Positions 2,859-17,298 of a DNA stretch of 17,372 bases are shown piece after piece. How positions within the stretch are numbered: the first letter of the stretch is position 1; every line of letters begins with the position of its first letter. The position numbers and the translations under genes were made by a program. This stretch comes from an uncultured archaeon (GTDB lineage: Archaea; Iainarchaeota; Iainarchaeia; Iainarchaeales; DATDZZ01): positions 171,341-188,712 of the forward strand of contig CAYJVY010000001.1 of assembly GCA_964373795.1 (NCBI GenBank). Direction: 5' to 3'. The notes beneath the pieces were generated by a model, which worked only from the letters and a program-made list of their open reading frames with translations, was not told where the DNA came from and made no database searches.

Positions 2859-3476
2859 ATGACTGAAAAACAAGAAACAAAGGTTTTTGGAAAATGGACT
2901 TCAAGTGATGTAAAAATTAATGACATTAGTTTAGTTCATCATATTAGATTGGATTCCAAAAAAATTCCTCACACTTTTGGAAAGGTTACTAGGAAAAGAT
3001 TTGGAAAAGAAAACCTTTCATTAATTGAAAGATTAATAAACAAAGTAATGCGTTCAGGGCAAGGTAAAAGAAAGTTGAGCGGAAAATACATTCGTGGAAG
3101 AGGGGCTTGTGGAAAAAAACTTCAAGCAATGAGAATAGTTGAAAATGCGTTTGACAAAATTGAAAAACAAGCAAAGCAAAATCCTTTACAAGTATTAGTT
3201 CAAGCAATTGAAAACTCTGCTCCAAGAGAAGACGTTACAAGAATTCAAAGAGGAGGAATTGCTTATACTCAAGCAGTAGATATTTCTCCAATGAAAAGAG
3301 TTGATGAATCAATTAAAAACATTGCTTTAGCTGCTTTCTCTCAATCATTTAATAATAAAACAGATGCATCTGAAGCACTAGCAAAAGAAATTTTACTTGC
3401 CTCAAAAGAAGACGCAAATTCTTTTTCAGTTAAAAGAAGAAACGAAATTGAAAGAATTGCTGCAAGTTCAAGGTAA
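2859..3476 (+). CDS. rps7: 30S ribosomal protein S7 (uS7)
   Basis: Carries the motif ENSAPREDVTRIQRGGIAYTQAVDISPMKRVDESIKNIALAA, characteristic of archaeal uS7. An AAGAGG Shine-Dalgarno-like motif at 2845-2850 lies 8 nt upstream of the ATG. Conserved position after rps12. Confidence 0.92.
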   Translation: MTEKQETKVFGKWTSSDVKINDISLVHHIRLDSKKIPHTFGKVTRKRFGKENLSLIERLINKVMRSGQGKRKLSGKYIRGRGACGKKLQAMRIVENAFDKIEKQAKQNPLQVLVQAIENSAPREDVTRIQRGGIAYTQAVDISPMKRVDESIKNIALAAFSQSFNNKTDASEALAKEILLASKEDANSFSVKRRNEIERIAASSR

Positions 3477-3513: not shown

Positions 3514-3535
3514 AAAAGATTTATTAACATCTTTT
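3514..3535 (+). promoter_or_regulatory. 7-bp inverted repeat AAAAGAT/ATCTTTT bracketing a TATA-like TTATTAAC
   Basis: AAAAGAT at 3514-3520, TTATTAAC at 3521-3528, ATCTTTT at 3529-3535 (exact reverse complement). It lies between the rps7 stop and the toxin-like gene. It could be an operator over a TATA box or a post-rps7 hairpin. Confidence 0.3.
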
Positions 3536-3563
3536 ATTAATATTGTTTTGTAGTGACTTTGTA

Positions 3564-3848
3564 ATGGAAATTTTTTGGACAAGCCATGCACAACAGAGAT
3601 TTATTGAAAGAGCATTAATTTATGGTTTTTCAAAAGCAGATATTGATTACCTTGCTTTAAAACAATTGGTGAGAATTAATAAAGGTTTTGATGAAAAATA
3701 TAAGACAAAAAAATTTGAAACAATTGGTTTGGCTGGAAAAGTTTTCCTTACAATTCAAAAAGCAGAAGACTCTAAAAAAATAATAATTATTACTTTGTGG
3801 GAGTCAAATAAGAAAGAGGTTGAATTATGGCTATCAAAACAAAAATGA
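3564..3848 (+). CDS. Small DUF4258-like protein (putative toxin of a type II TA-like pair)
   Basis: The N-terminal FWTSHAQQRFIERAL (HAxxRxxxR) and the C-terminal beta-strand KKIIIITLWES match the pattern I associate with the DUF4258 family. Its stop TGA (3846-3848) overlaps the downstream gene. I start at ATG 3564; the tracked ORF begins at TTG 3543. Confidence 0.55.
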   Translation: MEIFWTSHAQQRFIERALIYGFSKADIDYLALKQLVRINKGFDEKYKTKKFETIGLAGKVFLTIQKAEDSKKIIIITLWESNKKEVELWLSKQK

Positions 3849-4165
3849 AGTGTCCTGTTTGTGGAGGAGAAGCTATTCTATCAAAACAGAATTTGAAACT
3901 TTTCAGGGGGGCAATATCTTTAAAAGATAACTATGTGTATGTTTGCAAAAACTGTAATGAAAAATTTGCAACAGGAGAAATGACTGGAAAAGCATTGAAT
4001 CAAGCAAAGCAGTATTTCAAGTTTAATAGAAAATTAATTTCTACTGGCGGGAGTATTGCAATAACTCTTCCATCGGATTTAAGTGACTATTACAAACTAA
4101 AAAAAGGCGAACAAGTCCAAATAATCCCTCAATCAAAAAAAGAAATGAAAATAGTTATTTTGTGA
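3827..4165 (+). CDS. YgiT/MqsA-type zinc-ribbon protein fused to an AbrB/SpoVT-like domain (putative antitoxin)
   Basis: MKCPVCGGEAILSKQNLKLFRG...YVYVCKNCNEKFATGEM is the CxxC...CxxC YgiT-type zinc finger pattern. The C-terminal GGSIAITLPSDLSDYYKLKKGEQVQIIP looks like an AbrB/SpoVT swapped-hairpin motif. GAGGT at 3816-3820 precedes ATG 3827. The alternative ATG 3845 forms an ATGA overlap with the upstream stop. Confidence 0.6.
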   Translation: MAIKTKMKCPVCGGEAILSKQNLKLFRGAISLKDNYVYVCKNCNEKFATGEMTGKALNQAKQYFKFNRKLISTGGSIAITLPSDLSDYYKLKKGEQVQIIPQSKKEMKIVIL

Positions 4166-4226
4166 ATGACTTAAACTTTTCCAAGGCATTCTTTTAAAAT
4201 CTTTTGCAATCTGATTTCATTATTTA

Positions 4227-4263
4227 AGAGTTTAATTAACACGATTAACTCTATTTTTTTTTT
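4227..4263 (+). terminator. Weak hairpin (AGAGTT...AACTCT) followed by a T10 run
   Basis: AGAGTT at 4227-4232 pairs with AACTCT at 4247-4252 (14-nt loop). Ten consecutive T follow at 4254-4263. Oligo-T tracts act as archaeal intrinsic terminators. It sits after the TA-like pair and 10-20 nt before the aEF-2 start. Confidence 0.4.
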
Positions 4264-4273
4264 AAATTCATAG

Positions 4274-6478
4274 GTGAAATATTTGGGTAAAAAGGAAGAA
4301 GTAGCGGCATTAGCGGAAAAATTAATGTATACTCAGGAAAGAATTAGAAACATTGGAATAGTTGCACACATTGATCATGGTAAGACAACACTTACAGATA
4401 ATTTAATTGCTGCTGCTGGTTTAATGTCTCAAGAGTTAGCTGGAAAACAACTTGTAACTGATTCAGAGGATCAAGAACAAGAAAGAGGAATTACAATTAA
4501 TGCTGCAAATGTTACAATTGTTTACAATTTGCATGGCAATGATTTTTTGATTAACATTATTGATACTCCTGGACATGTTGATTTTACTGGAGAAGTTATT
4601 AGAGCAATGAGAGCAGTTGACGGAGTAATTTTAGTTGTAGATGCAGTTGAAGGAGTAATGCCTCAAACTGAAACAGTTATTAGACAGGCTTTAAGGGAAC
4701 ACGTTAAACCAGTTTTATTCATTAACAAGGTTGACAGACTTGTAAATGAATTACAAATAAGTGAAGAAGAAATGCAGAAAAGATTTGTGAAAACAATTAC
4801 TCATGTAAATGAATTAATTAGTAAAAGTGCTCCAGAACAATTTAAAGAGAAATGGCTTGTAAATCCTGGAAATGGATCAGTTGTATTTGGATCTGCTTAC
4901 AATAACTGGGCTGTTTCAGTTCCTTTCATGAATAAAAGTGGAATTAAATTCAAACAAGTTTACGAGTTTTGTAAAAAAGAAGGCGGGCAAAAAGAGTTAT
5001 CCAAGAAAAGTCCTTTGCAAGAAGTTGTATTGCAAATGGTTGCAACTCATTTACCTAATCCTTTAGAGGCTCAGAGTTATAGAATTAAAAGAATTTGGCC
5101 TGGAGACAAGGAATCAGAGGTAGGAAAAGCAATGCTTTCGGCTTCTTCTAAAGAACCTTTTGCAATGATGGTTACAGATGTTTCAGTTGACGCTCATGCA
5201 GGAGATATTGCAACTGGAAGAGTTTATTCTGGAACAGTTAAAAAAGGTTTAAAGGTTAACTTGATTGGAGGAAAAAAAGAAGTAATAGTTCAAAAGGTTT
5301 GCTTGTTCATGGTTACAGATTTTGTTGAAGTAAAAGAAATTCCTGCAGGAAATATTGCTGCCTTAATTGGATTAAAAGAAGTTTATGCAGGTGAAACTCT
5401 TTCCTCAATTCAAATGGATGAATTTGAATCATTTTTATCAAATGTAGAGCCAGTAATAACTATTTCAGTTGAACCAAAGCAAACAAAGGATTTGCCTAAA
5501 TTAATTCAAGTAATAAAGCAAGTAACAAAAGAAGATCCAAATGTTAAAGCAACAATTAATCAAGAAACAGGTGAACACTTACTTTCAGGAATGGGAGAAC
5601 TTCACTTAGAAGTAATTCAATACAGAATTGAAAAACACCATAATGTTCCATTAAATGTTTCTCCTCCAATTGTTTTATTTCATGAAACAGTTAACAAAGA
5701 GTCTCCTACAATTGAAGGAAAATCTCCAAACAAACATAATAAATTCAAAATAAATGTTTCCCCAATTCCAAAAGAAGTTTTACTTAAATTAGTTGAATCA
5801 CATTTAGATCAAAAAATTAAACCCAAAGATAAGGTAATGATTGCAAAATTTGAAGAAATGGGTTTTGAAAAAGAAGACGCTAAAAGAGTTTGGGCAGTTC
5901 ACAATAACTGTGCATTATTTGATATGACTAGAGGAATTGAAGCCTTACACGAAGTAAGAGAATTAGTAATTCAAGGATTTCAAGATGCAACAGATCAAGG
6001 GCCTTTAGCTAAAGAAAAATGTTTTGGATTAAGAGTTGACTTAGAAGATGCTTCACTACATGAAGACGCAATTCATAGAGGCCCTTCACAAGTATTGCCT
6101 GCAATTACTAGAGCAATTTATGCTGCATTTCTTTCAGCCGATCCAGTTTTATTCGAACCAAAACAAACTCTTACAATTACTGTTCCAGATGATTACATGG
6201 GAGCTGTTTCAAAAGAGCTTGGCTCTAGGAGAACTCAAATTCAAGAAATGAGGCAAGAAGGAGATTCAACTATTTTTATTGCAAAAGCTCCAGTAAAAGA
6301 ATTAATTGGGTTTTCAGCTGATATGAGAGGAGCAACTCAGGGAAGAGCTGTTTGGACAGCAGAATATGCAGGATATGAATTACTTCCAAGAGAATTACAA
6401 ACCCCTGTAATGAGAGAAATTCGTTCCAGAAAAGGAATGGATCCAGAACCAAAATCTGCAAGCTTTTTCATGGATTAA
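4274..6478 (+). CDS. fusA: Translation elongation factor 2 (aEF-2)
   Basis: G motifs AHIDHGKTT, DTPGH and NKVD. The diphthamide-site motif HEDAIHRGPSQ is intact (His codon 6074-6076). There is no ATG start. The candidates are GTG 4274 (tracked) or TTG 4283, which gives MGKKEE... and lies 5 nt after an AGGTGA Shine-Dalgarno-like motif (4272-4277). Confidence 0.95.
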   Translation: MKYLGKKEEVAALAEKLMYTQERIRNIGIVAHIDHGKTTLTDNLIAAAGLMSQELAGKQLVTDSEDQEQERGITINAANVTIVYNLHGNDFLINIIDTPGHVDFTGEVIRAMRAVDGVILVVDAVEGVMPQTETVIRQALREHVKPVLFINKVDRLVNELQISEEEMQKRFVKTITHVNELISKSAPEQFKEKWLVNPGNGSVVFGSAYNNWAVSVPFMNKSGIKFKQVYEFCKKEGGQKELSKKSPLQEVVLQMVATHLPNPLEAQSYRIKRIWPGDKESEVGKAMLSASSKEPFAMMVTDVSVDAHAGDIATGRVYSGTVKKGLKVNLIGGKKEVIVQKVCLFMVTDFVEVKEIPAGNIAALIGLKEVYAGETLSSIQMDEFESFLSNVEPVITISVEPKQTKDLPKLIQVIKQVTKEDPNVKATINQETGEHLLSGMGELHLEVIQYRIEKHHNVPLNVSPPIVLFHETVNKESPTIEGKSPNKHNKFKINVSPIPKEVLLKLVESHLDQKIKPKDKVMIAKFEEMGFEKEDAKRVWAVHNNCALFDMTRGIEALHEVRELVIQGFQDATDQGPLAKEKCFGLRVDLEDASLHEDAIHRGPSQVLPAITRAIYAAFLSADPVLFEPKQTLTITVPDDYMGAVSKELGSRRTQIQEMRQEGDSTIFIAKAPVKELIGFSADMRGATQGRAVWTAEYAGYELLPRELQTPVMREIRSRKGMDPEPKSASFFMD

Positions 6479-6508
6479 ACACATTATGGGTTTGGTCGAC
6501 ATTCAATG

Positions 6509-6550
6509 AACCAATTGCTTTCAGCAATTGGTTATCTATTTATTTTTTTT
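6509..6550 (+). terminator. Perfect 10-bp stem-loop followed by a T8 run, downstream of fusA
   Basis: AACCAATTGC (6509-6518), loop TTTCA, GCAATTGGTT (6524-6533, exact reverse complement), then a T8 run at 6543-6550. Confidence 0.6.
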
Positions 6551-6636
6551 AAATCAGTAGTTGAATTTTCTTTCATAGTTTTTATGGTTGAACCATTCAA
6601 GGATAATGCTTAAAACATTGATTTAATTTCTTTCCA

Positions 6637-7386
6637 CTATATTGCAATTATTTCTATTGGGTTTCCTCTGTCCCAAAAATCTCCAACAGGATTTAGATAT
6701 TCTTTTTCTGTTGCACTTACAAATTCTGTTTTTGGAATTCTTCTCCAAGAAATTTTAGTAAAACCTGCTTTTGTTAAATAATCAATAGTTGATTTTGTTG
6801 ATGAGCCCCATTCAACTACTCTTAGAACTCCGTTTTTCAAAAGCTTTCTTTCTCTCATTCTTCTCAGATCTTTTACAAGCTGTTCTTCTGCTTGTCTTCC
6901 AGCAGTTTTTATTAATGCTCTTTCAAAGTCACCCACAGTTGCCCCGGTATTTCTCAAGTGTTGCACTGCTTTGTCCCTTTTTTTCAGACTTCTACGAATT
7001 TCTTTTTCTATTTCTTCTACTAATTCTTCAAGGTAATTATGAATAAATATTCCTGCATTTATGAAACCAAATTTTCTTGGATCTTTAAGCCAAGCTTTAA
7101 AACCAGTGTAAGATAAATGCGCTCCAGGAATTTCTCTCCTATTTAAATCAGGGTGTTCTACTCCATGAATTCTTGCTCTTGGATTTAATTCCCCTGCATG
7201 TTTTATCCATTCTCCGCTAGCAAAACCCAAATCAACTATTCTATTTTGACTAGAAATAGCTTGTCTTACAAATGCTGCAGTATGCCTTTTAGGCAAATGC
7301 AATTTCCTTGGTTGTCTTGCATGCATTAAATAGTTGTGTTTTCCAGAATTTAAATCTCTTAGCTTTTTTCTTTTCCAAAAACACAA
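6637..7386 (-). CDS. Hypothetical protein, possibly Rossmann-fold methyltransferase-like
   Basis: IVDLGFASGEWIKH resembles SAM-binding motif I of FtsJ/RrmJ-like methyltransferases (VVDLGAAPGGW). I could not identify the K-D-K-E catalytic residues. The tracked start is TTG (7386); an ATG alternative at 7326 gives MHARQPRK.... Opposite strand to the translation operon. Confidence 0.3.
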   Translation of the reverse strand: MCFWKRKKLRDLNSGKHNYLMHARQPRKLHLPKRHTAAFVRQAISSQNRIVDLGFASGEWIKHAGELNPRARIHGVEHPDLNRREIPGAHLSYTGFKAWLKDPRKFGFINAGIFIHNYLEELVEEIEKEIRRSLKKRDKAVQHLRNTGATVGDFERALIKTAGRQAEEQLVKDLRRMRERKLLKNGVLRVVEWGSSTKSTIDYLTKAGFTKISWRRIPKTEFVSATEKEYLNPVGDFWDRGNPIEIIAI

Positions 7387-7394
7387 GTTTTAAA

Positions 7395-7421
7395 TATGTG
7401 GTTGCACATAAGTATTATGTG
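7395..7421. promoter_or_regulatory. Operator-like array TATGTG-N4-CACATA-N5-TATGTG in the divergent intergenic region upstream of the RHH/PIN pair
   Basis: TATGTG at 7395-7400, CACATA at 7405-7410 (reverse complement), TATGTG at 7416-7421. The second pair extends to 7 bp: CACATAA 7405-7411 and TTATGTG 7415-7421. A TATA-like TTTAAATA lies at 7389-7396. The antitoxin-like ATG is at 7429. Confidence 0.4.
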
Positions 7422-7428
7422 ATAATTT

Positions 7429-7671
7429 ATGCCTAATCTTACTCTTTCAATAACTGAGGAAACTAAAAAAATGATGGATAAGCACCCAGAAATTAGTTGG
7501 TCTAATGTAGTGCGTGTTATAATTGAACAGAAGCTCCGCGATTTTGAAGAAGCGGAAAGGCTTGCTTCCAAAAGCAAAATAACCGAAAAAGAATTTGAAA
7601 AGTTTATTTCAAAGGTGAATAAAGAAACAGCATTGCATGCGAAGAGGCTTCTTAATGAAAGTCACAGTTGA
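7429..7671 (+). CDS. Small antitoxin-like protein (possible ribbon-helix-helix, VapB-like)
   Basis: 80 aa. The N-terminal LSITEETKKMMDKHPEISWSNVVRVIIEQKL fits a strand-helix-helix pattern. It overlaps the downstream PIN gene by 17 nt. Confidence 0.5.
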   Translation: MPNLTLSITEETKKMMDKHPEISWSNVVRVIIEQKLRDFEEAERLASKSKITEKEFEKFISKVNKETALHAKRLLNESHS

Positions 7672-8065
7672 TGCAAATATTCTCTTTTCTGCTGTCTTGA
7701 AGCCTGGTTCTACACGAAGAATTTGGTTTAATCTTGATTTTAAATTATATGCTCCAACTTTTATTCTTACAGAATTCAAAAAGCACAGGCAATATCTATT
7801 CGAAAAAAGCAGGTTAAGTGAAGAGGAGTTTACAAATGTTGCAGGGAAAATTTTTTCCCAAACACATTTTATGGAAGATAATGAGCTGACTCCTTTTGTG
7901 CCTGCAGCAGCATCGCTTTTACAGGATCCCTTAGATTGGCTCTATCTTGCATGTGCGTTAAAAGAGGACACAGTAATCTGGAGCAATGATTTGGGATTCA
8001 AAAAACAAAATCGAATAAAGGTTTACTCAACAGAAGAAATGTTAAAAGAATTTGGTTTGCTTTAA
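7655..8065 (+). CDS. PIN-domain protein (VapC-like putative toxin ribonuclease)
   Basis: MKVTVDANILFSAVL... carries the first PIN acidic residue. Further acidic positions lie in LTEFKKH, DPLDWLYLACAL and VIWSNDLGF, the usual four-acidic PIN layout. I start at ATG 7655; the tracked ORF starts at 7637. Confidence 0.7.
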   Translation: MKVTVDANILFSAVLKPGSTRRIWFNLDFKLYAPTFILTEFKKHRQYLFEKSRLSEEEFTNVAGKIFSQTHFMEDNELTPFVPAAASLLQDPLDWLYLACALKEDTVIWSNDLGFKKQNRIKVYSTEEMLKEFGLL

Positions 8066-8085
8066 AATTTTTAAATATAATTGAT

Positions 8086-8337
8086 TTATTTTTCTTTGTA
8101 TAATCCGAAAGCAATTAATAGAATTGAAATGTATAAAACAATTGCTGAAATATCCATGATAATGTCCATTAGTCCTGGCCTGTAAAAAACATCATAAATT
8201 ACTCCGAGAAATTGGAATGGAATTAGTCTAAGAAAATCATTAATTAGTAAAACAAAGCTTAAAAACAAAGTGAACAATCTTAATAAAATGTTTAAAATTA
8301 TTCCTATTGCTCCAAGTATTACAAAAACGTTTTTCAT
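8086..8337 (-). CDS. Small hydrophobic membrane protein (about 3 predicted TM segments), function unknown
   Basis: 83 aa with hydrophobic stretches VFVILGAIGIILNILLRLFTLFLSFVLLI and ISAIVLYISILLIAFGL. I recognise no family. Confidence 0.4.
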   Translation of the reverse strand: MKNVFVILGAIGIILNILLRLFTLFLSFVLLINDFLRLIPFQFLGVIYDVFYRPGLMDIIMDISAIVLYISILLIAFGLYKEK

Positions 8338-8421
8338 AATTTAAAGATTATTGAAACGTTAAAGCTTTTAAATATATTAGTATAAATAATATATATTTTT
8401 AGAGTTTAGAGCTTGTTGAAT

Positions 8422-8455
8422 GGATTTATTTAACTTCTTAAATCCTGTTTTTTTT
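8422..8455 (+). other. Hairpin (7-bp stem, 10-nt loop) plus T8 run just upstream of the tuf ribosome-binding site
   Basis: GGATTTA at 8422-8428 pairs with TAAATCC at 8439-8445. A T8 run follows at 8448-8455. The GAGGTGA Shine-Dalgarno motif is at 8470-8476 and the tuf ATG at 8484. A very AT-rich TATA-like stretch lies at about 8368-8400. Confidence 0.35.
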
Positions 8456-8483
8456 AATGCGTAAACTGTGAGGTGAATAAAGC

Positions 8484-10163: not shown

Positions 10164-10811
10164 ATGTTTCCTATACTTAATCTGAAAATTGAAAATCCTT
10201 TCATTAAATCTGCTTTACTTGGATTGATTGCAGGAATTCTTTTAGAATTTTTTTTAATTCTTTTCTCTGTATTAATTTCATTTGTATTTTTCAGTTTTTT
10301 TGGAGCAACTTCTTTCAATAGTTCTTCAAGTCTTTTTCTTATAGCTTTTTATATTATTAGTACTTTTTTAGTTATTTTTATTAGATTCTTTTTTGCTTTT
10401 TTAGTTGGCTTTGCTTCTTCTTATTTTTTGAAATCTTTTCCTCAATTGAAAAGAATTTTATTTGCAGGAATTGCAGGAATAACTAATGCAGTTGGAGCCT
10501 TTATTCTTGACATTATATTAATTATCATAGGTCTCTTGCTTTTTTTTATTATTTCAGCGTTTTCATCTTTTAGTAGTGGTGGAATGGGTTTACAGTTATT
10601 TTTTATGCAAGCTTTTTTATCATTATTAGGATTAGTATTTTACTTTTTTTTATTATTAATTTCTTTAATGATTGGAATTTTTTTAGGAGCATTACTTGGT
10701 TCTTTAGGAGGACTTGTTTCAATAATTGTTTTTCCTTCCCAGCTTAAAGAAACAGCTTCAAATATTTCTGTTAAAAGCTTTGTTGTAGAAAGATCTTTAA
10801 AGAAAAAGTGA
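10164..10811 (+). CDS. Polytopic membrane protein (about 5-6 TM segments), function unknown
   Basis: 215 aa, extremely rich in Phe/Leu/Ile/Ser, with repeated hydrophobic segments. It lies directly upstream of the alpha-2-macroglobulin-like gene on the same strand. Its stop TGA (10809-10811) overlaps GTG 10808 of the long ORF. Confidence 0.55.
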   Translation: MFPILNLKIENPFIKSALLGLIAGILLEFFLILFSVLISFVFFSFFGATSFNSSSSLFLIAFYIISTFLVIFIRFFFAFLVGFASSYFLKSFPQLKRILFAGIAGITNAVGAFILDIILIIIGLLLFFIISAFSSFSSGGMGLQLFFMQAFLSLLGLVFYFFLLLISLMIGIFLGALLGSLGGLVSIIVFPSQLKETASNISVKSFVVERSLKKK

Positions 10812-10842
10812 TTAGGTTTTTTCCTAATCATTCCTTAAGGTA

Positions 10843-10850
10843 TTTAAATA
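10843..10850 (+). promoter_or_regulatory. TATA-like TTTAAATA about 24 nt upstream of ATG 10871 (possible leaderless promoter for the A2M-like gene)
   Basis: TTTAAATA at 10843-10850 and ATG at 10871. The spacing fits an archaeal TATA box to a transcription start at or near the start codon. TATA-like strings are frequent in AT-rich DNA, so support is weak. Confidence 0.25.
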
Positions 10851-10870
10851 CTTTAATTCCTATTTATTGC

Positions 10871-13800
10871 ATGAAGTTTGCAAAACTAGTCATGCTTTTC
10901 TTCTTGTTTTCTTTTTTTTCTTCATTTGTTTCAGCTAATGGCATTTCTAACAGTAGTTATTTTTATTTGCAAATTGATTCCTCTGTTTTACCTGGCAAAC
11001 CAATTGATTTATCTTTTTGCGGAAATGCAAAGCTTGCAAGGCTTGAAATATTTAAATTAAATCCTTTAGATGCTCCTTTAGAAAAATATTTAGATAAATT
11101 AGAGGTTGAAGCACTTTTATTAAAATCTGAAAAAATTCGTTCACTTGATTTGCTTATTCAAGGAACAGATTATTGTAAAAAACAAGTACTTGAACCATTA
11201 ACTTCTGGATATTATTATTTCAAAGCATTTGAAGTAGGAATTCCAGTAGTTGATAGCTTGCTTGCAGAATATAATTTTGTTAATGTTTCATCCCTTGGAT
11301 TTATAGCAAAGCAATCTGATTCTAAAACTGCTTTTTATGTTTTTGACTTGGTTTCAGGAAAACCTTTACAAGGAGCTGAAGTTTTTTCTTTTAAAGAAGC
11401 ATTTAAGGATGCGAAATCAATTGGTTTAACTAACGAGCTTGGCTTGCTTGAAATTGATAAGGGAGAAGAAATTCAAAACGTTTTAGCTTCCTTGCAAGGA
11501 AATAATGCTTTTACTCGAACTTATTATTATGCTAGTTCTTATGATAAATTCCAAGTTTATTCTTTTACTGATCGCCCTATTTACAGGCCAAACCAAAAAG
11601 TTTTCTTTAAATCCATTGCATGGCAGAACTTGAATGGATTGAAATCTTTTTACTCTAATTCTTCAATTCAAGTTGAAATTTCTGATTCAAAAGGAAATTC
11701 TGTTTTCAAACAGTCTTTTACTTCAAATGAATTTGGAGCTATTTCAGGAGAATTTGTTTTAGGTGACGAGCCTTCTTTAGGAAATTATTCTTTAAATGTT
11801 TTAATTAACGATCAAGCTTTTTATTCTCAAGGATTTGAAGTTCAAGAATACCGAAAACCCGAATACAAGGTTTCCTTAACTCCTAGTAAAAAGCAATTTC
11901 TTAAAGGAGACAAAATTGAATTAAAGGTTTTAACTGAATACTTTTTTGGAAGCCCTGTTCCAAATGCAGATTTAGTTTTTGAAGTGCAAAAAGATTCTTC
12001 TTATTTTTCTCCTTGTTGGGGTTATTATAAATGTTTTTATGCTGAAGAATTTATTTTGCCTCCAAGGTATTTTAGAGGACAAACAGTTTTTTCAGGGCAA
12101 TTAAAAACTGATTTACAAGGAGAAGCAATTGTTTCCTTTGATTCAAATTCTTTAGAGGAAACAGATGTTACTTATACTGTAACAGTTAAAGCATTTGATG
12201 AATCTAGGAGAGAGGCAAGCGCTTCAACTCAAGTAAAAGTTAATTCGGCTTTATTCAAATTACTTGGTTTAACAAATAAATATTCTTATTCAGTTGGAGA
12301 AGAAATTAAGGTAAAAATTAAATCAATTGATAACGATAATTCTCCAGTTAATGCAAAAATTGATGTAAATGTTTCTAGAGGAGAATGGGATGCAAATTAC
12401 TCTGTTTACACAATTGAATCAATTAAATTTGACTCAGTTGAATCAAAAGAAGGAGTAGCAGATTATTCTTTCACTGTTTCTAAAGGAGGAAGTTATTCAA
12501 TTGAGTTAACCTCTAAAGATGAAAAAGGAAATCCAGTGAAATATAAATTAAATGTTTATGTTTATGAAGCTGGAAGATTTTTTGATAAATTTGATTCTTT
12601 AGAGATTTCATTGGATAAAGATGCGTATTCTCAAAACGATGTAGCTGTTTTAACAATTAATTCTCCTGTAAAAGAGTTTGTTGCATTAGTTTCAATTGAA
12701 GGAAAAAAATTATTTTATTTAAAGCCAACTTATTCTGAAACTAATTCAAAGCAATTGCATTTACAGTTAACTCCTGAAATGACTTTAAATGCATTTGTAA
12801 ATGTTTCAATTGTTAAAGACAATAAAATGTATTCAGCTGTAAAAAGAATTTTAATTCCCCCTGCAAATAAAAACTTGAATGTAGAAATTACTCCTCAAAA
12901 AGATTTTTTTAACCCCAGAGAAAAAGTTCAATTCAGAGTTAAATTAACTGATGAAGAAGGCAAACCAGTTAAAGGAGAGCTTTCACTTGGATTAGTTGAT
13001 GAATCAATTTATTCATTGAAAGAAGATTCAAGTGAAGACATTTTTAAATTCTTTTACTCTCCTGAAAGAAATTCTGTTTACACTAGTTCTTCTGTTCAAG
13101 CATTTTATTATCCAAGAGGAATAGAAGGTGAAATAATGACTGAATCAGGAATGCCTTTATTGGGTATTGCAGCTCCCAGAATGGAGAAAAGTGTTGACAG
13201 TGTTAGAAGAGAGTTTGCTGCTACAGAAATTAGAAATATTTTTGCTGACACTGCTTTTTGGAATTCATCAGTTAAAACAAATGCTGAAGGAGAAGCATTA
13301 GTTGAAGTTGACTTGCCTGATAATTTGACTACTTGGAGGGCAACAGTTAAAGCACTTGGAACTGAAATGCAGGTAGGACAAAACACTGATAAAATTGTTT
13401 CAAGAAAAAAAGTTATTGCTCGTTTAATTACTCCTCGCTTTTTAGTGCAAGGAGATGAATTAATTATTTCAGGAATTGTTCACAATTTCTTGCCTGAACA
13501 ACAAGAATTTTTAGTTCAATTAGATTCAAATGATTTAGAATTCCTTTCATCTAATGAAAAACTTGTTTCAATTGCTTCAAATGCTTCTCAAAGAATTGAT
13601 TTCACTGTAAAAGCTTCAAAGTGTTGTTCTGCAAAGCTTGCTTTAAAATCTCTTGGCTTAATTGAATCAGATGCAATGGAGTTAACTCTTCCAGTATTGC
13701 CTCATGGAGTAAAGCAAACAAAATATTTTTCAGGCGAACTTAAAGGAAATGAATTAGTTCAAGAAATTTTATTCCCTGAAAAAACAATTGCAGGAGCTGA

Positions 13801-15796
13801 TTCAGTTTTGATTTCCTTAAATCCATCTATTGCTGCTTCAATGCTTGATTCTTTAGATTATTTAACTGGTTATCCTTATGGATGTGTAGAGCAAACAATG
13901 TCAAAGTTTTTGCCAAACTTAATAGTTGATCAAGCTTTAAAGAAATTAAATTTATCCAAACCTGAGTTGCAAAAAGATTTGCCTGACCAAGTAAGTAAGG
14001 GATTGCAAAGATTGTATGACTTTCAGCATGGAGATGGCGGTTGGGGTTGGTGGAAAGATGATCAAACAAATAATTACATGACTGCATATGTTGTATATGG
14101 TTTGAGTCTTGCAGAACAATCAGGTTTTAATGTTGATAAAAGCGTTTTGCAGAGAGGAGTAAATAAATTAGAGCAATTGTTTGCAGAAGAAACAAATCAA
14201 AACATTAAGGCATTCATGTCTTATGCTCTTTCACTGCAAGGAATTAATAGATTTGAAGGAATTAAAAAAGAAGAGCTTTCCTCTTATGGAAAAGCTGTTT
14301 ATGCTTTAGCTTTATGGAATGAAAAATCTCCAGAGGCAACTAATAAGCCTGCTGAAAGAAAACAATTAGCTCAAGACTTAGTGAAAGAACTTGATTTGAA
14401 TGGTTCTTGTACTTCACTTGAATGTTCTTGGACTGGGGAAGGCTGGAGACAACATTATTCTTCAAACGATGTTGAAGCAACAGCCTATGTATTAAAAGCA
14501 TTAATTGCAATTAATCCTTTATCTGAAAACATTCCTAAAACAATTAATTTTTTAGTTAGAAACAAAAAAGGAGGAAGATGGGTTTCCACTTCAGATACAG
14601 CTGCAGCTATTTTTGCTTTAACTGATTACTTAGTTTTAACTCAAGAACTAAAGCCAAATTATTCTCTTCAAGTTTCATTTAACAATGATTTGCTTTCCTC
14701 TAATCAAATTAATTCAAGCAATGTTTTAAACAAGTTTGAGTTTTCTCCAAAAGTTCTTCAAAAAAATAATTCAATTAAGGTTTCAAAGCAAGGCCAAGGA
14801 AAATTATATTATGCAATTACTCAGCAATTCTTTGAATTAAAGGATTTAATTGAAGCAGAATCAAATGGAATTAAAATTACTCGTTCAATGCCTTTAGAAA
14901 TTGATTTAGGACAAGAGTTTGATGTAAACCTTTTAGTTGAATTAAATGCAGATTATGAGTACTTGATTTTAGAAGACTTTCTTCCAGCAGGAGTAGAATT
15001 AGTTGATGAAAAAAAATCAGATGACTATTATTATTGGGATTATAAAAGGTTTGAAAGAAGAGATGAAAAAGTTGTATTCTTTTTTTCTTGGCTTGGAAAA
15101 GGACAACATAGTTTTTCTTACAGAGTTAGAGCAGAAGTTCCAGGAACATTTAAAGTACTGCCAACTCAGTCTTCTTTAATGTATGCTCCAGAAATAAATG
15201 GAAGATCTTCTGAAAACACTTTAAAAATAACTGAAAATTATAGATTGTTTATTCCAAAAATAGATGTTAATGCACAAGAAATAATAATTATTTTAGATGA
15301 AGAAACTCTTTCGGGAGAAAAAATTAATGGATCAATTGATTTAATTGTTTCAGATTCAAACGGAGTAACATTGTCTTCCAAATCAATTGATTTAAATCTT
15401 TCTCAGCCAAGAAAATCCGAGCAAACAAGTATTTCTTTAAATAAAAAATTAAGTGAAGGACAATACACTGTTTCATTAAAGGCTTATACAGATAAAGGAA
15501 ACTTTGCTTCGACAAAGGCCTTCCAATTAGGAAGAATTACAGTAGTTGAAGAAATTCCTGAAACCATTACTAGTTTAAGTAAGGAAAAAATTGTTTTCGA
15601 TAAATCAAGTGTTCCATTTAAACCTGATTCAACTGTAATTCCTTCTGCAAAAATTACTCCAATTCCTGATAAACCTAAAACTCCTGGAATTGATTTATTT
15701 AAAATTATAGGAGGAGCATTAATTATTCTTTCACTAATTGCAATAATTTACATTGTTTTTCTACGCAAAGGAGCTCAAATTGAAGCAGAAGACTAA
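10871..15796 (+). CDS. Alpha-2-macroglobulin family protein with an intact thioester motif, signal peptide and C-terminal membrane anchor
   Basis: Signal-peptide-like MKFAKLVMLFFLFSFFSSFVSA (10871-10936). MG-domain motifs are DRPIYRPNQKVFFKS and VQEYRKPEYKVSL. The A2M-domain motif is FADTAFWNSSVKTNAEGEALVEVDLPDNLTTWRATVKA. The thioester motif is GYPYGCVEQTMSKFLP (CVEQ = 13883-13894). The thioester-domain helices include DFQHGDGGWGWW and GGRWVSTSDTAAAIFALTDY. The C-terminal TM segment is IIGGALIILSLIAIIYIVFL (15704-15763), followed by RKG. I start at ATG 10871 rather than the tracked GTG 10808. Confidence 0.88.
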   Translation: MKFAKLVMLFFLFSFFSSFVSANGISNSSYFYLQIDSSVLPGKPIDLSFCGNAKLARLEIFKLNPLDAPLEKYLDKLEVEALLLKSEKIRSLDLLIQGTDYCKKQVLEPLTSGYYYFKAFEVGIPVVDSLLAEYNFVNVSSLGFIAKQSDSKTAFYVFDLVSGKPLQGAEVFSFKEAFKDAKSIGLTNELGLLEIDKGEEIQNVLASLQGNNAFTRTYYYASSYDKFQVYSFTDRPIYRPNQKVFFKSIAWQNLNGLKSFYSNSSIQVEISDSKGNSVFKQSFTSNEFGAISGEFVLGDEPSLGNYSLNVLINDQAFYSQGFEVQEYRKPEYKVSLTPSKKQFLKGDKIELKVLTEYFFGSPVPNADLVFEVQKDSSYFSPCWGYYKCFYAEEFILPPRYFRGQTVFSGQLKTDLQGEAIVSFDSNSLEETDVTYTVTVKAFDESRREASASTQVKVNSALFKLLGLTNKYSYSVGEEIKVKIKSIDNDNSPVNAKIDVNVSRGEWDANYSVYTIESIKFDSVESKEGVADYSFTVSKGGSYSIELTSKDEKGNPVKYKLNVYVYEAGRFFDKFDSLEISLDKDAYSQNDVAVLTINSPVKEFVALVSIEGKKLFYLKPTYSETNSKQLHLQLTPEMTLNAFVNVSIVKDNKMYSAVKRILIPPANKNLNVEITPQKDFFNPREKVQFRVKLTDEEGKPVKGELSLGLVDESIYSLKEDSSEDIFKFFYSPERNSVYTSSSVQAFYYPRGIEGEIMTESGMPLLGIAAPRMEKSVDSVRREFAATEIRNIFADTAFWNSSVKTNAEGEALVEVDLPDNLTTWRATVKALGTEMQVGQNTDKIVSRKKVIARLITPRFLVQGDELIISGIVHNFLPEQQEFLVQLDSNDLEFLSSNEKLVSIASNASQRIDFTVKASKCCSAKLALKSLGLIESDAMELTLPVLPHGVKQTKYFSGELKGNELVQEILFPEKTIAGADSVLISLNPSIAASMLDSLDYLTGYPYGCVEQTMSKFLPNLIVDQALKKLNLSKPELQKDLPDQVSKGLQRLYDFQHGDGGWGWWKDDQTNNYMTAYVVYGLSLAEQSGFNVDKSVLQRGVNKLEQLFAEETNQNIKAFMSYALSLQGINRFEGIKKEELSSYGKAVYALALWNEKSPEATNKPAERKQLAQDLVKELDLNGSCTSLECSWTGEGWRQHYSSNDVEATAYVLKALIAINPLSENIPKTINFLVRNKKGGRWVSTSDTAAAIFALTDYLVLTQELKPNYSLQVSFNNDLLSSNQINSSNVLNKFEFSPKVLQKNNSIKVSKQGQGKLYYAITQQFFELKDLIEAESNGIKITRSMPLEIDLGQEFDVNLLVELNADYEYLILEDFLPAGVELVDEKKSDDYYYWDYKRFERRDEKVVFFFSWLGKGQHSFSYRVRAEVPGTFKVLPTQSSLMYAPEINGRSSENTLKITENYRLFIPKIDVNAQEIIIILDEETLSGEKINGSIDLIVSDSNGVTLSSKSIDLNLSQPRKSEQTSISLNKKLSEGQYTVSLKAYTDKGNFASTKAFQLGRITVVEEIPETITSLSKEKIVFDKSSVPFKPDSTVIPSAKITPIPDKPKTPGIDLFKIIGGALIILSLIAIIYIVFLRKGAQIEAED

Positions 15797-15835: not shown

Positions 15836-16273
15836 ATGCCTTTCAAGTTTTTAGAGGAAGTTGCTTTAGCAGACATTGCTTTTAAAGCAACTGGAAAGGA
15901 TTTAATTGAATTACTTGAATCTAGTGCTTTAGCTGTTTTCACTGTAATGGTTGACTTGAAAACAGTTAAACCAAAAATTGAGAAAACTTTCACAGTTAAC
16001 TTACAAGCAGATAATTTTGAAAAACTTTTATTTGATTTTTTATCAGAAATTGTTTTCTTGAAGGACACTGAAGGAATGGTTTTTAAGGAAATAAAAGTTA
16101 AATGGTTTCCAGCAAAACGCGGAGCAATAGTTAAAGCAATTTTAAAAGGAGATTTAGTTAACCCTAAAACTCAAATTCTTGGACAAGACGTGAAAGCAGT
16201 TACAATGCATAATTTTAAAGTCGAGAAAACTTCTTTAAAAAAATGGAAAGCATTTGTAATCCTGGATATTTAG
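15836..16273 (+). CDS. Archease (RtcB tRNA-splicing ligase cofactor family)
   Basis: 145 aa. The N-terminal FKFLEEVALADIAFKATGKDLIELLESSALAVFTVM and the C-terminal VKAVTMHNFKVEK...WKAFVILDI match the conserved archease termini. Confidence 0.8.
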   Translation: MPFKFLEEVALADIAFKATGKDLIELLESSALAVFTVMVDLKTVKPKIEKTFTVNLQADNFEKLLFDFLSEIVFLKDTEGMVFKEIKVKWFPAKRGAIVKAILKGDLVNPKTQILGQDVKAVTMHNFKVEKTSLKKWKAFVILDI

Positions 16274-17298
16274 TTTTTTATTTTCTCTAATTTTTGTTGT
16301 CTTGCTTTTTCTCTGAAACCAATTGCTTCTCTAAACCTTGGAATTCCTTTAGGCCAAATCCTAATAACTATATTAGGAATTCCACTACTTCTTTCTTTTC
16401 CAATTGAATGTTCAACTCCTGCTTCACTCAAATAAAGTGATACGTGTTTCACTAACTCTGGATTTGTTGAAGGCAGTTCTATACACGTAGTTTTTTTTGG
16501 CCCTGAAAAGTGTATTACTCCATGTGAATCAAATAATCCTTTCAAGAAATCAATTCTGTTTTTTTGAGTTGAAAGAATTTTTACAGGAATTCTAGTTAAA
16601 TACTCTGTTTCTCTGTTTAAAATTTGAGTTAAATTTCTTGCAATAAACGCATGTGTTTCAAGTCCTTTTGTTTCAACAAATTTCACTTCTTTTCCTGCAA
16701 TATTTGCTAATCTTGTTCTAAATTCTTTTCCAAAACCTTTATCTTTTGCTGCAAGATTTAATCCCATGTTACCAACAACTTTTTTTTGTTGAGGACTTCT
16801 TCTAGTTTCTTGTCCAAACATTGCTCCAATAATATATGCATAATCTGCTTCTTTTTCTGGAGTGAACTCAATTTTTTTTCTCATTCTTTCATATGAATCT
16901 GCTCTTTTAAGTGAAACATTTTTTGGAAGCCTTTCATGAAAAAGCCATAAACGAACAGAGGTTTTCTCCACTCCAAATCGTTTTGCAATATGAGTTAAAT
17001 TAGGAGTTTGTCCTAATTCAATATATTGATTGTATGCTTCAACTACTTGTTTAAGGGTTTCAAATTCTTTTAATTGTTGTTCTAGTTTTCTACGCATTTC
17101 TTCTGGTTTTACTCCAAGCCAAGAAAATCTTTCAAGTAATCTTTCCCTTGCTTCAACTAGTGAAACTCTTTGCCCTGAAGGCAAAAAAATAATTGATTCT
17201 TTTCTATCTTTTGATGGAAGCAAGGCTTCAAGGTATGAAATTCTTTTCTTCCAAATAGTATTTCTTGTATTAGCTGGCTTTTTTCTTGCTCTAATCAT
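16270..17298 (-). CDS. Free-standing HTH + double-motif LAGLIDADG (homing-endonuclease-like) protein
   Basis: HTH-like LTHIAKRFGVEKTSVRLWL (about 16945-17001). LAGLIDADG-like motif 1 is YAYIIGAMFGQE (16807-16842) and motif 2 is DFLKGLFDSHG (16519-16551), about 97 aa apart as in single-chain enzymes. The C-terminal IRIWPKGIPRFREAIGFREKARQQKL is typical of the fold. There are no Hint/intein blocks and no flanking extein. The 3' end overlaps the archease 3' end by 4 nt (convergent). Confidence 0.65.
   Translation of the reverse strand: MIRARKKPANTRNTIWKKRISYLEALLPSKDRKESIIFLPSGQRVSLVEARERLLERFSWLGVKPEEMRRKLEQQLKEFETLKQVVEAYNQYIELGQTPNLTHIAKRFGVEKTSVRLWLFHERLPKNVSLKRADSYERMRKKIEFTPEKEADYAYIIGAMFGQETRRSPQQKKVVGNMGLNLAAKDKGFGKEFRTRLANIAGKEVKFVETKGLETHAFIARNLTQILNRETEYLTRIPVKILSTQKNRIDFLKGLFDSHGVIHFSGPKKTTCIELPSTNPELVKHVSLYLSEAGVEHSIGKERSSGIPNIVIRIWPKGIPRFREAIGFREKARQQKLEKIKN

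Follow-up and report, generated by a model that had tools for sequence, protein, structure and literature searches.

A probable toxin-antitoxin cassette with a zinc ribbon-AbrB protein as candidate antitoxin at the S7-EF-2 gene junction of a DPANN archaeon

Few gene junctions in archaea are as conserved as that between the genes for ribosomal protein S7 and elongation factor 2 (EF-2), and a locus at which two small overlapping genes stand between them raises the question of what these genes encode and how they came to be placed there. Such a locus is found in a stretch of 17,372 nucleotides (nt), hereafter the window, from an uncultured archaeon of the Iainarchaeales (GenBank assembly GCA_964373795.1, contig CAYJVY010000001.1, positions 171,341 to 188,712 of the forward strand). 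The window is low-GC (~30%) archaeal DNA with the gene string L30e/L7Ae-like, NusA-KH, S12, S7, EF-2, EF-1alpha and S10, and the two open reading frames (ORFs) in question, ORF-A and ORF-B, lie between S7 and the EF-2 gene (aEF-2). The pair is probably a type II toxin-antitoxin (TA) module with the toxin gene first, carried on a mobile cassette of ~0.7 kb that was inserted between S7 and EF-2 in one lineage. It displays the generic properties of such modules, namely a coupled and conserved gene pair, unrelated neighbourhoods from locus to locus, and a DNA-binding domain together with repeats that are candidate operators. The cassette and its flanks comprise the following features (lengths in amino acids, aa).

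2859..3476, plus strand: ribosomal protein S7 gene (Pfam Ribosomal_S7, E = 2e-35), the upstream flank of the cassette
3564..3848, plus strand: ORF-A, 94 aa, ATG to TGA, putative toxin gene; contains HAQQRFIER and IIITLWES
3816..3820, plus strand: Shine-Dalgarno (SD) sequence GAGGT of ORF-B, within the ORF-A codons K-E-V (conserved K-E-V-x-L-W)
3827..4165, plus strand: ORF-B, 112 aa, ATG to TGA, gene of the putative antitoxin and autorepressor; contains CPVC...CKNC and GGSIAITLPSDLSDYYKLKKGEQVQIIP
3845..3979, plus strand: MqsA/YgiT-type four-Cys zinc ribbon (C9, C12, C40, C43) of ORF-B, residues 7-51 (TIGR03831), presumably the toxin-binding part
4028..4162, plus strand: AbrB/MazE/SpoVT swapped-hairpin domain of ORF-B, residues 68-112 (TIGR02609, PF04014), which would dimerise and bind DNA
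4254..4263, plus strand: T10 run just 5' of EF-2, read from the sequence
4274..6478, plus strand: aEF-2 gene (Pfam), the downstream flank of the cassette

The coordinates of both ORFs, their motifs and the S7 and EF-2 (fusA) flanks agreed in full with a preliminary description of the locus, which had been made from the sequence alone. Both ORFs are genuine genes, since their homologs are 50-75% identical with undisrupted frames, and the ratio of nonsynonymous to synonymous substitutions (dN/dS) is 0.07-0.22 for ORF-A and ORF-B, indicating purifying selection. The S7-A-B-EF-2 order was also recovered in independent assemblies from two other sequencing runs, and thus the arrangement is not a chimera. 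For the junction between the two genes, the preliminary description had offered two possibilities, a 22-nt overlap or an ATGA overlap at 3845-3848. The former was preferred, because the MxxKxK N-terminus of ORF-B is kept across 20 homologs and a GGAGGT is found 6-8 nt 5' of its ATG in 12 of 15 loci, whereas the Met7 codon required by the ATGA start is ATA or GTG in most loci, so that this second start was ruled out. With its SD sequence and ATG inside the last codons of ORF-A, ORF-B would be translationally coupled to ORF-A, and this coupling would set the toxin:antitoxin ratio.

In ORF-B, a zinc ribbon of the MqsA type is joined to an AbrB/MazE/SpoVT domain at the C-terminus. Searches with profiles, against PDB sequences and by fold gave a consistent picture of this composition, which had been proposed in the preliminary description for the antitoxin of a TA-like pair. 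The YgiT-type zinc finger model TIGR03831 aligned with residues 9-51 at 21.0 bits (cutoff 20.2), and C9, C12, C40 and C43, which form two CxxC pairs, are invariant in the family. At the other end of the protein, TIGR02609 ('doc_partner', an AbrB-type antidote) gave a weak match over residues 68-109 (E = 0.012). Pfam returned only sub-threshold zinc ribbons for ORF-B of the window, and PF04014 (MazE_antitoxin/AbrB) was not reported for it at E <= 1. Among 20 close homologs, the YgiT_finger model was matched by 19 (best 2.6e-6), the MqsA family model by 17 and doc_partner by 18. When 1.84 billion representative proteins were searched exhaustively with a profile, 127 relatives of ORF-B emerged; ~60 of these are full-length (100-118 aa) and combine CxxC...CxxC with GxSLxIxIPxxxAxxLxLKKGxxV at the C-terminus. 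PF04014 was matched by 40 of 61 full-length members (best 2.4e-10) and MqsA_antitoxin by 14. The close full-length relative P0033, which matches the narrow profile of the family at E = 3e-29, reached 30.6 bits with PF04014, for which the cutoff is 24.7, while P0060 and P0078 reached 26.5 and 25.4 bits; the domain would accordingly be assigned at the family level and by transitive homology.

When a profile of the 61 members was compared with PDB sequences, its N-terminal half retrieved E. coli MqsA (3ga8, 3gn5, 3hi2 and 2kz8, E = 8e-6 to 3e-5) and its C-terminal half retrieved AbrB, MazE and PemI structures (7d2n, 2mrn, 1ub4, 1mvf and 5itm, E = 5e-6 to 1e-3); this broad profile was needed, as the narrow-family profiles gave nothing useful against the same sequences. 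In Foldseek, the five best PDB matches of the ORF-B model were the MqsA N-domain (32% identity over 59 columns), one of them in the MqsA-N:MqsR complex, and the AbrB region of the monomer model, predicted at pLDDT 39-49, matched 5itj, 2w1t and 1mvf at E >= 1 only. ORF-B is not a member of the MqsA family (TIGR03830, PF15731), since the defining Xre-type helix-turn-helix (HTH) is absent and the C-terminus is AbrB-type; the family model TIGR03830 scored 13.8 bits (cutoff 61.8), with the N-terminal part alone aligned. The architecture had been called unusual, and it is indeed uncommon, although not unique, as it occurs in ~60 protein clusters at 50% identity that are already in public data under generic annotations. 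No description of a zinc ribbon-AbrB fusion was found in the literature, in a limited search that makes this weak evidence of novelty.

The ORF-A family comprises ~69 clusters at 90% identity, all in DPANN-type bins, three of which are labelled DUF4258 by NCBI. DUF4258 has been placed among the BECR-fold toxins, and DUF4258-MqsA fusions are on record (PMC11980606), while a 2026 preprint equated DUF4258 with Ntox49, in a colicin-like BECR branch. The Pfam model of DUF4258 (PF14076) was weakly matched by seven of 13 ORF-A family members, over the whole model but at 12.9-19 bits, under its gathering threshold of 25 bits, and weak BrnT profile matches were observed among the relatives as well. All residues that are invariant in the family (W5, H8, A9, R12, E15, R16, K33, Q34, K66, E68, W79, E80 and E85) are kept in ORF-A of the window. 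Its AF2 model showed the topology b-a-a-b-b-b-b-a (b, strand; a, helix), and the best PDB matches found by Foldseek were exclusively RelE, ParE, YoeB and HigB toxins, at weak values (E = 6e-3 to 0.1, TM 0.45-0.5).

Two distant relatives of ORF-B connect its partner with DUF4258. At the locus L043, a bona fide DUF4258 gene (34.6 bits against the threshold of 25, E = 2.4e-8) lies upstream of, and overlaps, the gene of a distant zinc ribbon-AbrB protein. The alignment of the ORF-A family profile with this DUF4258 by hhalign (probability 82%, E = 1.1e-5, 62 columns) brought the HAxxR, G[IF]S..E.E and IIVITL motifs into register, which supports a remote relationship, not membership. At L044, a 108-aa gene upstream of a distant zinc ribbon-AbrB protein matched the ORF-A profile (hhalign E = 4.6e-8). 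The L043 pair (1-991) is located ~1.3 kb downstream of a phage-type integrase gene, and this suggests that it is carried on an integrative element. Judged from profiles and from the predicted model, ORF-A is a divergent DUF4258-like protein with a putative BECR fold (RelE/ParE-like), and not a demonstrated member of DUF4258. The central reading of the preliminary description, a TA-like pair in which a zinc ribbon-AbrB antitoxin is partnered with a DUF4258-like protein, was supported by all computational tests made, with a refinement for ORF-A: relatives at 13-19 bits, the BECR-fold matches and the DUF4258 neighbour in L043 speak for the DUF4258-like partner, whereas ORF-A of the window itself stays below the cutoff of 25, with no Pfam match. 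The protein families named there were recovered unevenly in the window, where TIGR03831 and TIGR02609 matched ORF-B, but DUF4258 gave no match for ORF-A and PF04014 none for ORF-B.

Three elements were considered at the 5' side of ORF-A.

3514..3535, no strand assigned: palindrome AAAAGAT (3514-3520)-N8-ATCTTTT (3529-3535), which brackets the TATA-like box
3520..3527, plus strand: TATA-like box TTTATTAA, 44 nt 5' of the ORF-A start, at the place that CTTAAATAA/TTTATTAA takes in other cassettes (15 loci)
3550..3566, plus strand: proximal double hexamer GTAGTG-N5-GTAATG at -14 and -3, the second copy overlapping the ATG; candidate operator half-sites

The upstream regions of the cassettes were found to share a common layout, in which 1-3 direct copies of (TTTTT)CACTAY at ~-89, -71 and -60 are followed by a TATA-like box (CTTAAATAA or TTTATTAA) at ~-41 to -44 and then by the inverted form, RTAGTG, at -14 and again at -3, where it overlaps the start codon. 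Copies of the same orientation are spaced 11 nt apart. The 15 loci contain 22 distal and 22 proximal hexamers, against ~0.3 and ~0.2 (RTAGTG, 0.16) in shuffles, and hexamers of the opposite orientation were never observed. Moreover, the double hexamer was confined to cassette promoters across 48 fetched loci and is unique within the window. The distal hexamers are absent from the window copy, as they are from L018 and L020, and the TATA-like box, which would serve as the promoter, and the proximal pair are kept. The preliminary description had pointed to the palindrome as a candidate binding site of the antitoxin. The inverted repeat does exist and is mildly unusual, given that 7-nt perfect inverted repeats with short loops occur at ~2 per kb in the window and that 3.8% of the shuffles of the 87-nt spacer contain one. 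However, it is not conserved in the 15 homologous loci and is probably not an operator; the conserved candidate operator would instead be the oriented hexamer set, with CACTAY twice, the TATA box and RTAGTG twice.

The occurrence of the pair was followed in ~20 loci independent of one another, almost all of which carry the label Candidatus Iainarchaeum or Diapherotrites (Iainarchaeia, DPANN). Its format is constant, with 94 + 111-114 aa, and the 22-nt overlap with the embedded SD sequence was present in 16 of 17 intact loci. In contrast to this constancy within the cassette, more than 10 distinct neighbourhoods were recorded, different at each locus, which included Laminin_G/HTH, tRNA plus pyrophosphatase, PIN/Cpn60, ATP-grasp, His_Phos/tRNA-deacylase and HIT/DUF192 genes as well as a HicAB-ParE-Fic-AbiEii island. 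In L025 and L031/32, ORF-A is truncated at its 5' end and its HAxxRFxER motif is gone, with ORF-B intact. In L027 (~300-760), ORF-A is reduced to its last 14 codons, again next to an intact ORF-B, and a different gene, RelE/ParE-like (...GQYRICFREKEKTKEILFAGNHKQYKKWYSKFF) and preceded by a small ORF of its own, adjoins the remnant. Loss of the toxin while the antitoxin stays is the decay pattern expected of a TA pair. Two of the loci, L021 and L024, were binned as Chloroflexota; their upstream flanks are near-identical to those of the Iainarchaeum contigs L011 and L023, and they are therefore probably mis-binned rather than products of inter-domain transfer. No relatives of ORF-A or ORF-B were found among the IMG/VR viral contigs.

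A trace of the mobility of the cassette may be preserved in L002. An intron-containing tRNA at 4762-4929, with an intron of 87 nt, was recognised by Rfam (42.6 bits) but not by ARAGORN; its end lies 71 nt 5' of this cassette, and the last 47 nt of the tRNA are repeated 9 nt past the ORF-B stop (5617-5663), at 74% identity and with the final 17 nt identical. This duplication would represent an att-like signature around a 0.7-kb cassette devoid of an integrase. In L029, a tRNA-Asn (2092-2165) ends 72 nt 5' of ORF-A, at a distance that matches L002, and the CACTAC repeats begin right after the tRNA; no second copy of the tRNA end was found in this 5.3-kb locus, and in the window there is neither a tRNA nor a flanking repeat at the cassette. 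Integration at tRNA genes was consequently rejected as a general route of mobility, the duplicated tRNA 3' end being restricted to L002. A TTTTAAACATTAAACGC-like motif was observed on both sides of several cassettes, in L024 (~-113 and +93, 17 nt exact), L001, L005 and L030, and it could be a boundary mark of the cassette or simply a widespread promoter-like element. In the 88-aa protein P0145, the ORF-A N-terminus (MIIRWSLHAKDRFCERAL...) is joined directly to an AbrB-type C-terminus, in what looks like an internal deletion fusing toxin and antitoxin remnants.

Under the proposed mechanism, ORF-A, as a small relative of DUF4258 with the BECR fold, would be the toxin and would most likely act as a ribonuclease; its conserved residues H8, R12, E15, R16, K66 and E68 are candidates for the active site. 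The four-Cys zinc ribbon of ORF-B would bind and neutralise the toxin, by analogy with MqsA, and the AbrB/MazE-type domain would dimerise and bind DNA. The antitoxin, alone or with the toxin, would probably repress the promoter of its own cassette via the oriented hexamers, with two RTAGTG copies where transcription and translation begin and, for the majority of cassettes, two or three CACTAY copies upstream of the TATA box.

Several observations weigh against this interpretation. A Pfam search of ORF-A of the window gave no match, its AF2 model is of moderate confidence (pLDDT 68), and all its fold matches lie at E > 1e-3; for ORF-B, the quality of the monomer model is low (pLDDT 56). DUF4258 is experimentally undescribed (PMC11980606), and no PADLOC defence model matched in the window. 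The toxin-decay pattern is ascertainment-biased, most loci having been fetched through ORF-B; ORF-B was retained in all four loci ascertained independently through ORF-A. At the promoter, autoregulation in the window may differ or be weakened without the distal hexamers, and the proximal hexamer could be an SD sequence (GTGA, weak) instead of an operator.

Part of this evidence also bears on an alternative, considered unlikely, in which the module would be regulatory and non-toxic, with ORF-B as a transcription factor of the usual AbrB type and ORF-A as its small partner, either co-regulating or sensing a ligand. The persistence of ORF-B without ORF-A in several genomes would also fit a free-standing regulator, ORF-A falls under every curated toxin-family threshold, and toxicity has not been demonstrated for any DUF4258 protein. 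However, a co-regulator is at odds with an ORF-A fold whose matches are RelE, ParE, YoeB and HigB toxins only, as well as with a partner domain that is the toxin-binding domain of MqsA. Likewise, the double hexamer is found at the promoter of the cassette itself only, across the 48 loci, and the pair is mobile, occurs in TA/defence islands and was replaced by a RelE/ParE-like gene in L027.

The placement of the TA cassette was addressed by comparison with eight contigs whose S7 proteins are 61-71% identical to that of the window. All eight S7-EF-2 junctions are without the cassette, with EF-2 located ~10-150 nt after S7, whereas the spacer in the window is ~800 nt; the cassette position is thus a lineage-specific insertion into the S12-S7-EF-2 operon. 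The cassette is not conservedly associated with ribosomal genes and is not part of the translation machinery. The preliminary description had supposed that its expression is tied to ribosomal-protein transcription, and this was not supported as a selected feature, in view of the different neighbourhoods in other genomes and of the eight junctions without the cassette; read-through from S7 in this one genome is possible. Extra DNA at the S7-EF-2 junction of L034 was rejected as a cassette, as it corresponds to an EF-2 intein.

It could still be supposed that the insertion was domesticated, so that toxin or antitoxin expression is coupled to ribosomal-protein transcription or an antitoxin-controlled promoter gates EF-2. 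The cassette is co-oriented with the operon, ORF-A begins only 87 nt after the S7 stop with no strong terminator in between, the window copy is without the distal half of the candidate operator, and the ancestral S7-EF-2 linkage of 20-35 nt has been lost. This proposal appears improbable, since the position is unique to the lineage, with none of the eight relatives carrying the cassette there and ~20 other cassettes lying elsewhere, and since the cassette retains its own TATA box and a T10 run precedes EF-2. Furthermore, the S12 intein and a PIN gene in the same operon are also apparently selfish, which points to tolerated junk. There is a similarly small chance that EF-2 is transcribed by read-through from, or from the promoter of, an antitoxin-autoregulated cassette missing its distal operator half, in which case the supply of EF-2 in a reduced-genome archaeon would be linked to the status of a toxin system directed at translation. 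As read from the sequence, the T10 run (4254-4263) is possibly an archaeal oligo-T terminator for cassette or S7 transcripts.

Protein binding at the hexamers, as assumed for the autoregulated TA cassette, has to be distinguished from a function in RNA, where the distal CACTAC would pair with the proximal GTAGTG on read-through transcripts, hiding the ORF-A start and insulating the toxin from foreign promoters. A hairpin of this kind is predicted in L011, L017 and L022 (z = -4.5 to -5.1, with none of 200 shuffles as stable), but such a fold follows from any inverted repeat, and the folds of L015, L029 and the window are no better than shuffles. There are no compensatory changes at the R/Y position, C-A mismatches are found in L011, L021 and L024, and the 11-nt spacing of copies in the same orientation suits protein binding to one face of the helix. 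Given that covariation is lacking and the hairpin cannot form in the window, protein binding is preferred, and a role in RNA is regarded as very improbable. Finally, the identification of ORF-A as a small ferredoxin-fold enzyme of the ABM/IsdI kind instead of a toxin, suggested by weak hidden Markov model matches via the ILTIWES-like strand (NCBIfam E = 0.04; PDB 2zdp/1sqe E = 0.012), was rejected on predicted topology and fold search and retains a negligible likelihood, because the match is limited to one strand and loop, the predicted topology is b-a-a-b-b-b-b-a and not b-a-b-b-a-b, none of 50 Foldseek matches has the ABM fold, and both partner and context are typical of TA modules.

Other observations were made on the genes around the cassette. 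The EF-2 relatives begin with MAKKEDIV..., and by alignment the EF-2 start of the window is probably TTG 4283 rather than GTG 4274, with GGTGA at 4273-4277 as its likely SD sequence. The S12 gene (892-2844) encodes 650 aa because it carries an intein, with Pfam Intein_splicing at residues 75-572 flanked by Ribosom_S12_S23, and S12 is of normal length in the related contigs. In L034 (2312-4438), the EF-2 intein of ~515 aa bears a LAGLIDADG-type motif and is placed in the P-loop (AHIDHGK/CVAPS...VVHN/STLADS, slashes marking its ends). Together, these two cases show that core translation genes have been host to inteins more than once in this lineage. The operon is broken a second time in the window, between EF-2 and EF-1alpha (6479-8483), and this interval, which also contains a minus-strand 83-aa ORF, may hold another TA-like insertion.

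6637-7386, minus strand: 249-aa ORF with a weak FtsJ-like match only
7429-7671: 80-aa ORF without a match, overlapping the PIN_2 gene
7637-8065: PIN_2 domain gene (E = 1e-21)

Further downstream, at 10808-15796, the window encodes a 1662-aa alpha-2-macroglobulin-like protein with MG2, A2M_BRD, A2M, TED and bMG10 domains and with hydrophobic segments at the N- and C-terminus, which adjoins a 215-aa polytopic membrane protein; for a DPANN genome of small size, this is a sizeable investment. Beside the archease gene (15836-16273), a free-standing 342-aa protein with a LAGLIDADG_3 match (E = 1e-5) is encoded on the minus strand (16270-17298), and its gene may be homing-endonuclease-derived.

The TA cassette does not overturn the current understanding of TA systems, being a variant of a well-known type of selfish element. 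It adds a defined archaeal (DPANN) subfamily to the DUF4258 branch of the BECR-fold toxins and provides an example of antitoxin modularity, in which the toxin-binding module would be retained and the DNA-binding module swapped. In addition, the candidate operator is well defined by its 11-nt spacing, which makes DNA binding and autoregulation directly testable. With the cassette at S7-EF-2, the intein in S12 and the PIN gene before EF-1alpha, the core translation operons of tiny DPANN genomes appear permissive to selfish elements.

Among the known systems, MqsR-MqsA (YgiU-YgiT) of E. coli resembles the cassette in its gene order, with the toxin gene first, in its BECR-fold toxin (a fold that is predicted for ORF-A), and in an antitoxin composed of an N-terminal four-Cys zinc domain, which in MqsA binds the toxin (PDB 3hi2), followed by a C-terminal DNA binder, dimeric in MqsA and presumably so in ORF-B. 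The two systems differ in that the C-terminus of ORF-B is AbrB/MazE/SpoVT-type and that of MqsA an Xre-type HTH, in that ORF-A is DUF4258-like and has no match to PF15723 (MqsR), and in the archaeal (DPANN) host. The shuffling of antitoxin DNA-binding domains is a well-established theme. The DUF4258 (PF14076) toxins that are paired or fused with MqsA-type antitoxins share with ORF-A the N-terminal HAxxR motif, the G[IF]S..E.E helix and the terminal IIVITL-type strand, and they share with the cassette a downstream partner bearing a YgiT-type zinc ribbon. Unlike them, ORF-A and its ~69 relatives score 0-19 bits against the threshold of 25, and the ORF-A family contains an insertion of ~16 residues (GFDEKYKxxKFET) relative to the DUF4258 core.

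The MazE, VapB(AbrB), PemI and 'doc_partner' antitoxins have in common with ORF-B the swapped-hairpin DNA-binding domain, assigned to ORF-B by homology, and the presumed role of promoter autorepressor. However, in these antitoxins the AbrB domain is N-terminal, a disordered C-terminal tail binds the toxin and the antitoxin gene is usually first, whereas ORF-B carries its AbrB domain at the C-terminus, would probably bind the toxin through a folded zinc ribbon and is encoded behind the putative toxin gene. RelE, ParE, YoeB and HigB provide the best structural matches of the ORF-A model, BrnT gives weak profile matches among the relatives of ORF-A, and the toxin-first order is found in the BrnT and HigB modules too. 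In contrast, there is no significant sequence similarity between ORF-A and any of these toxins, the structural matches stay at TM 0.45-0.5, and the catalytic residues are not mappable onto ORF-A.

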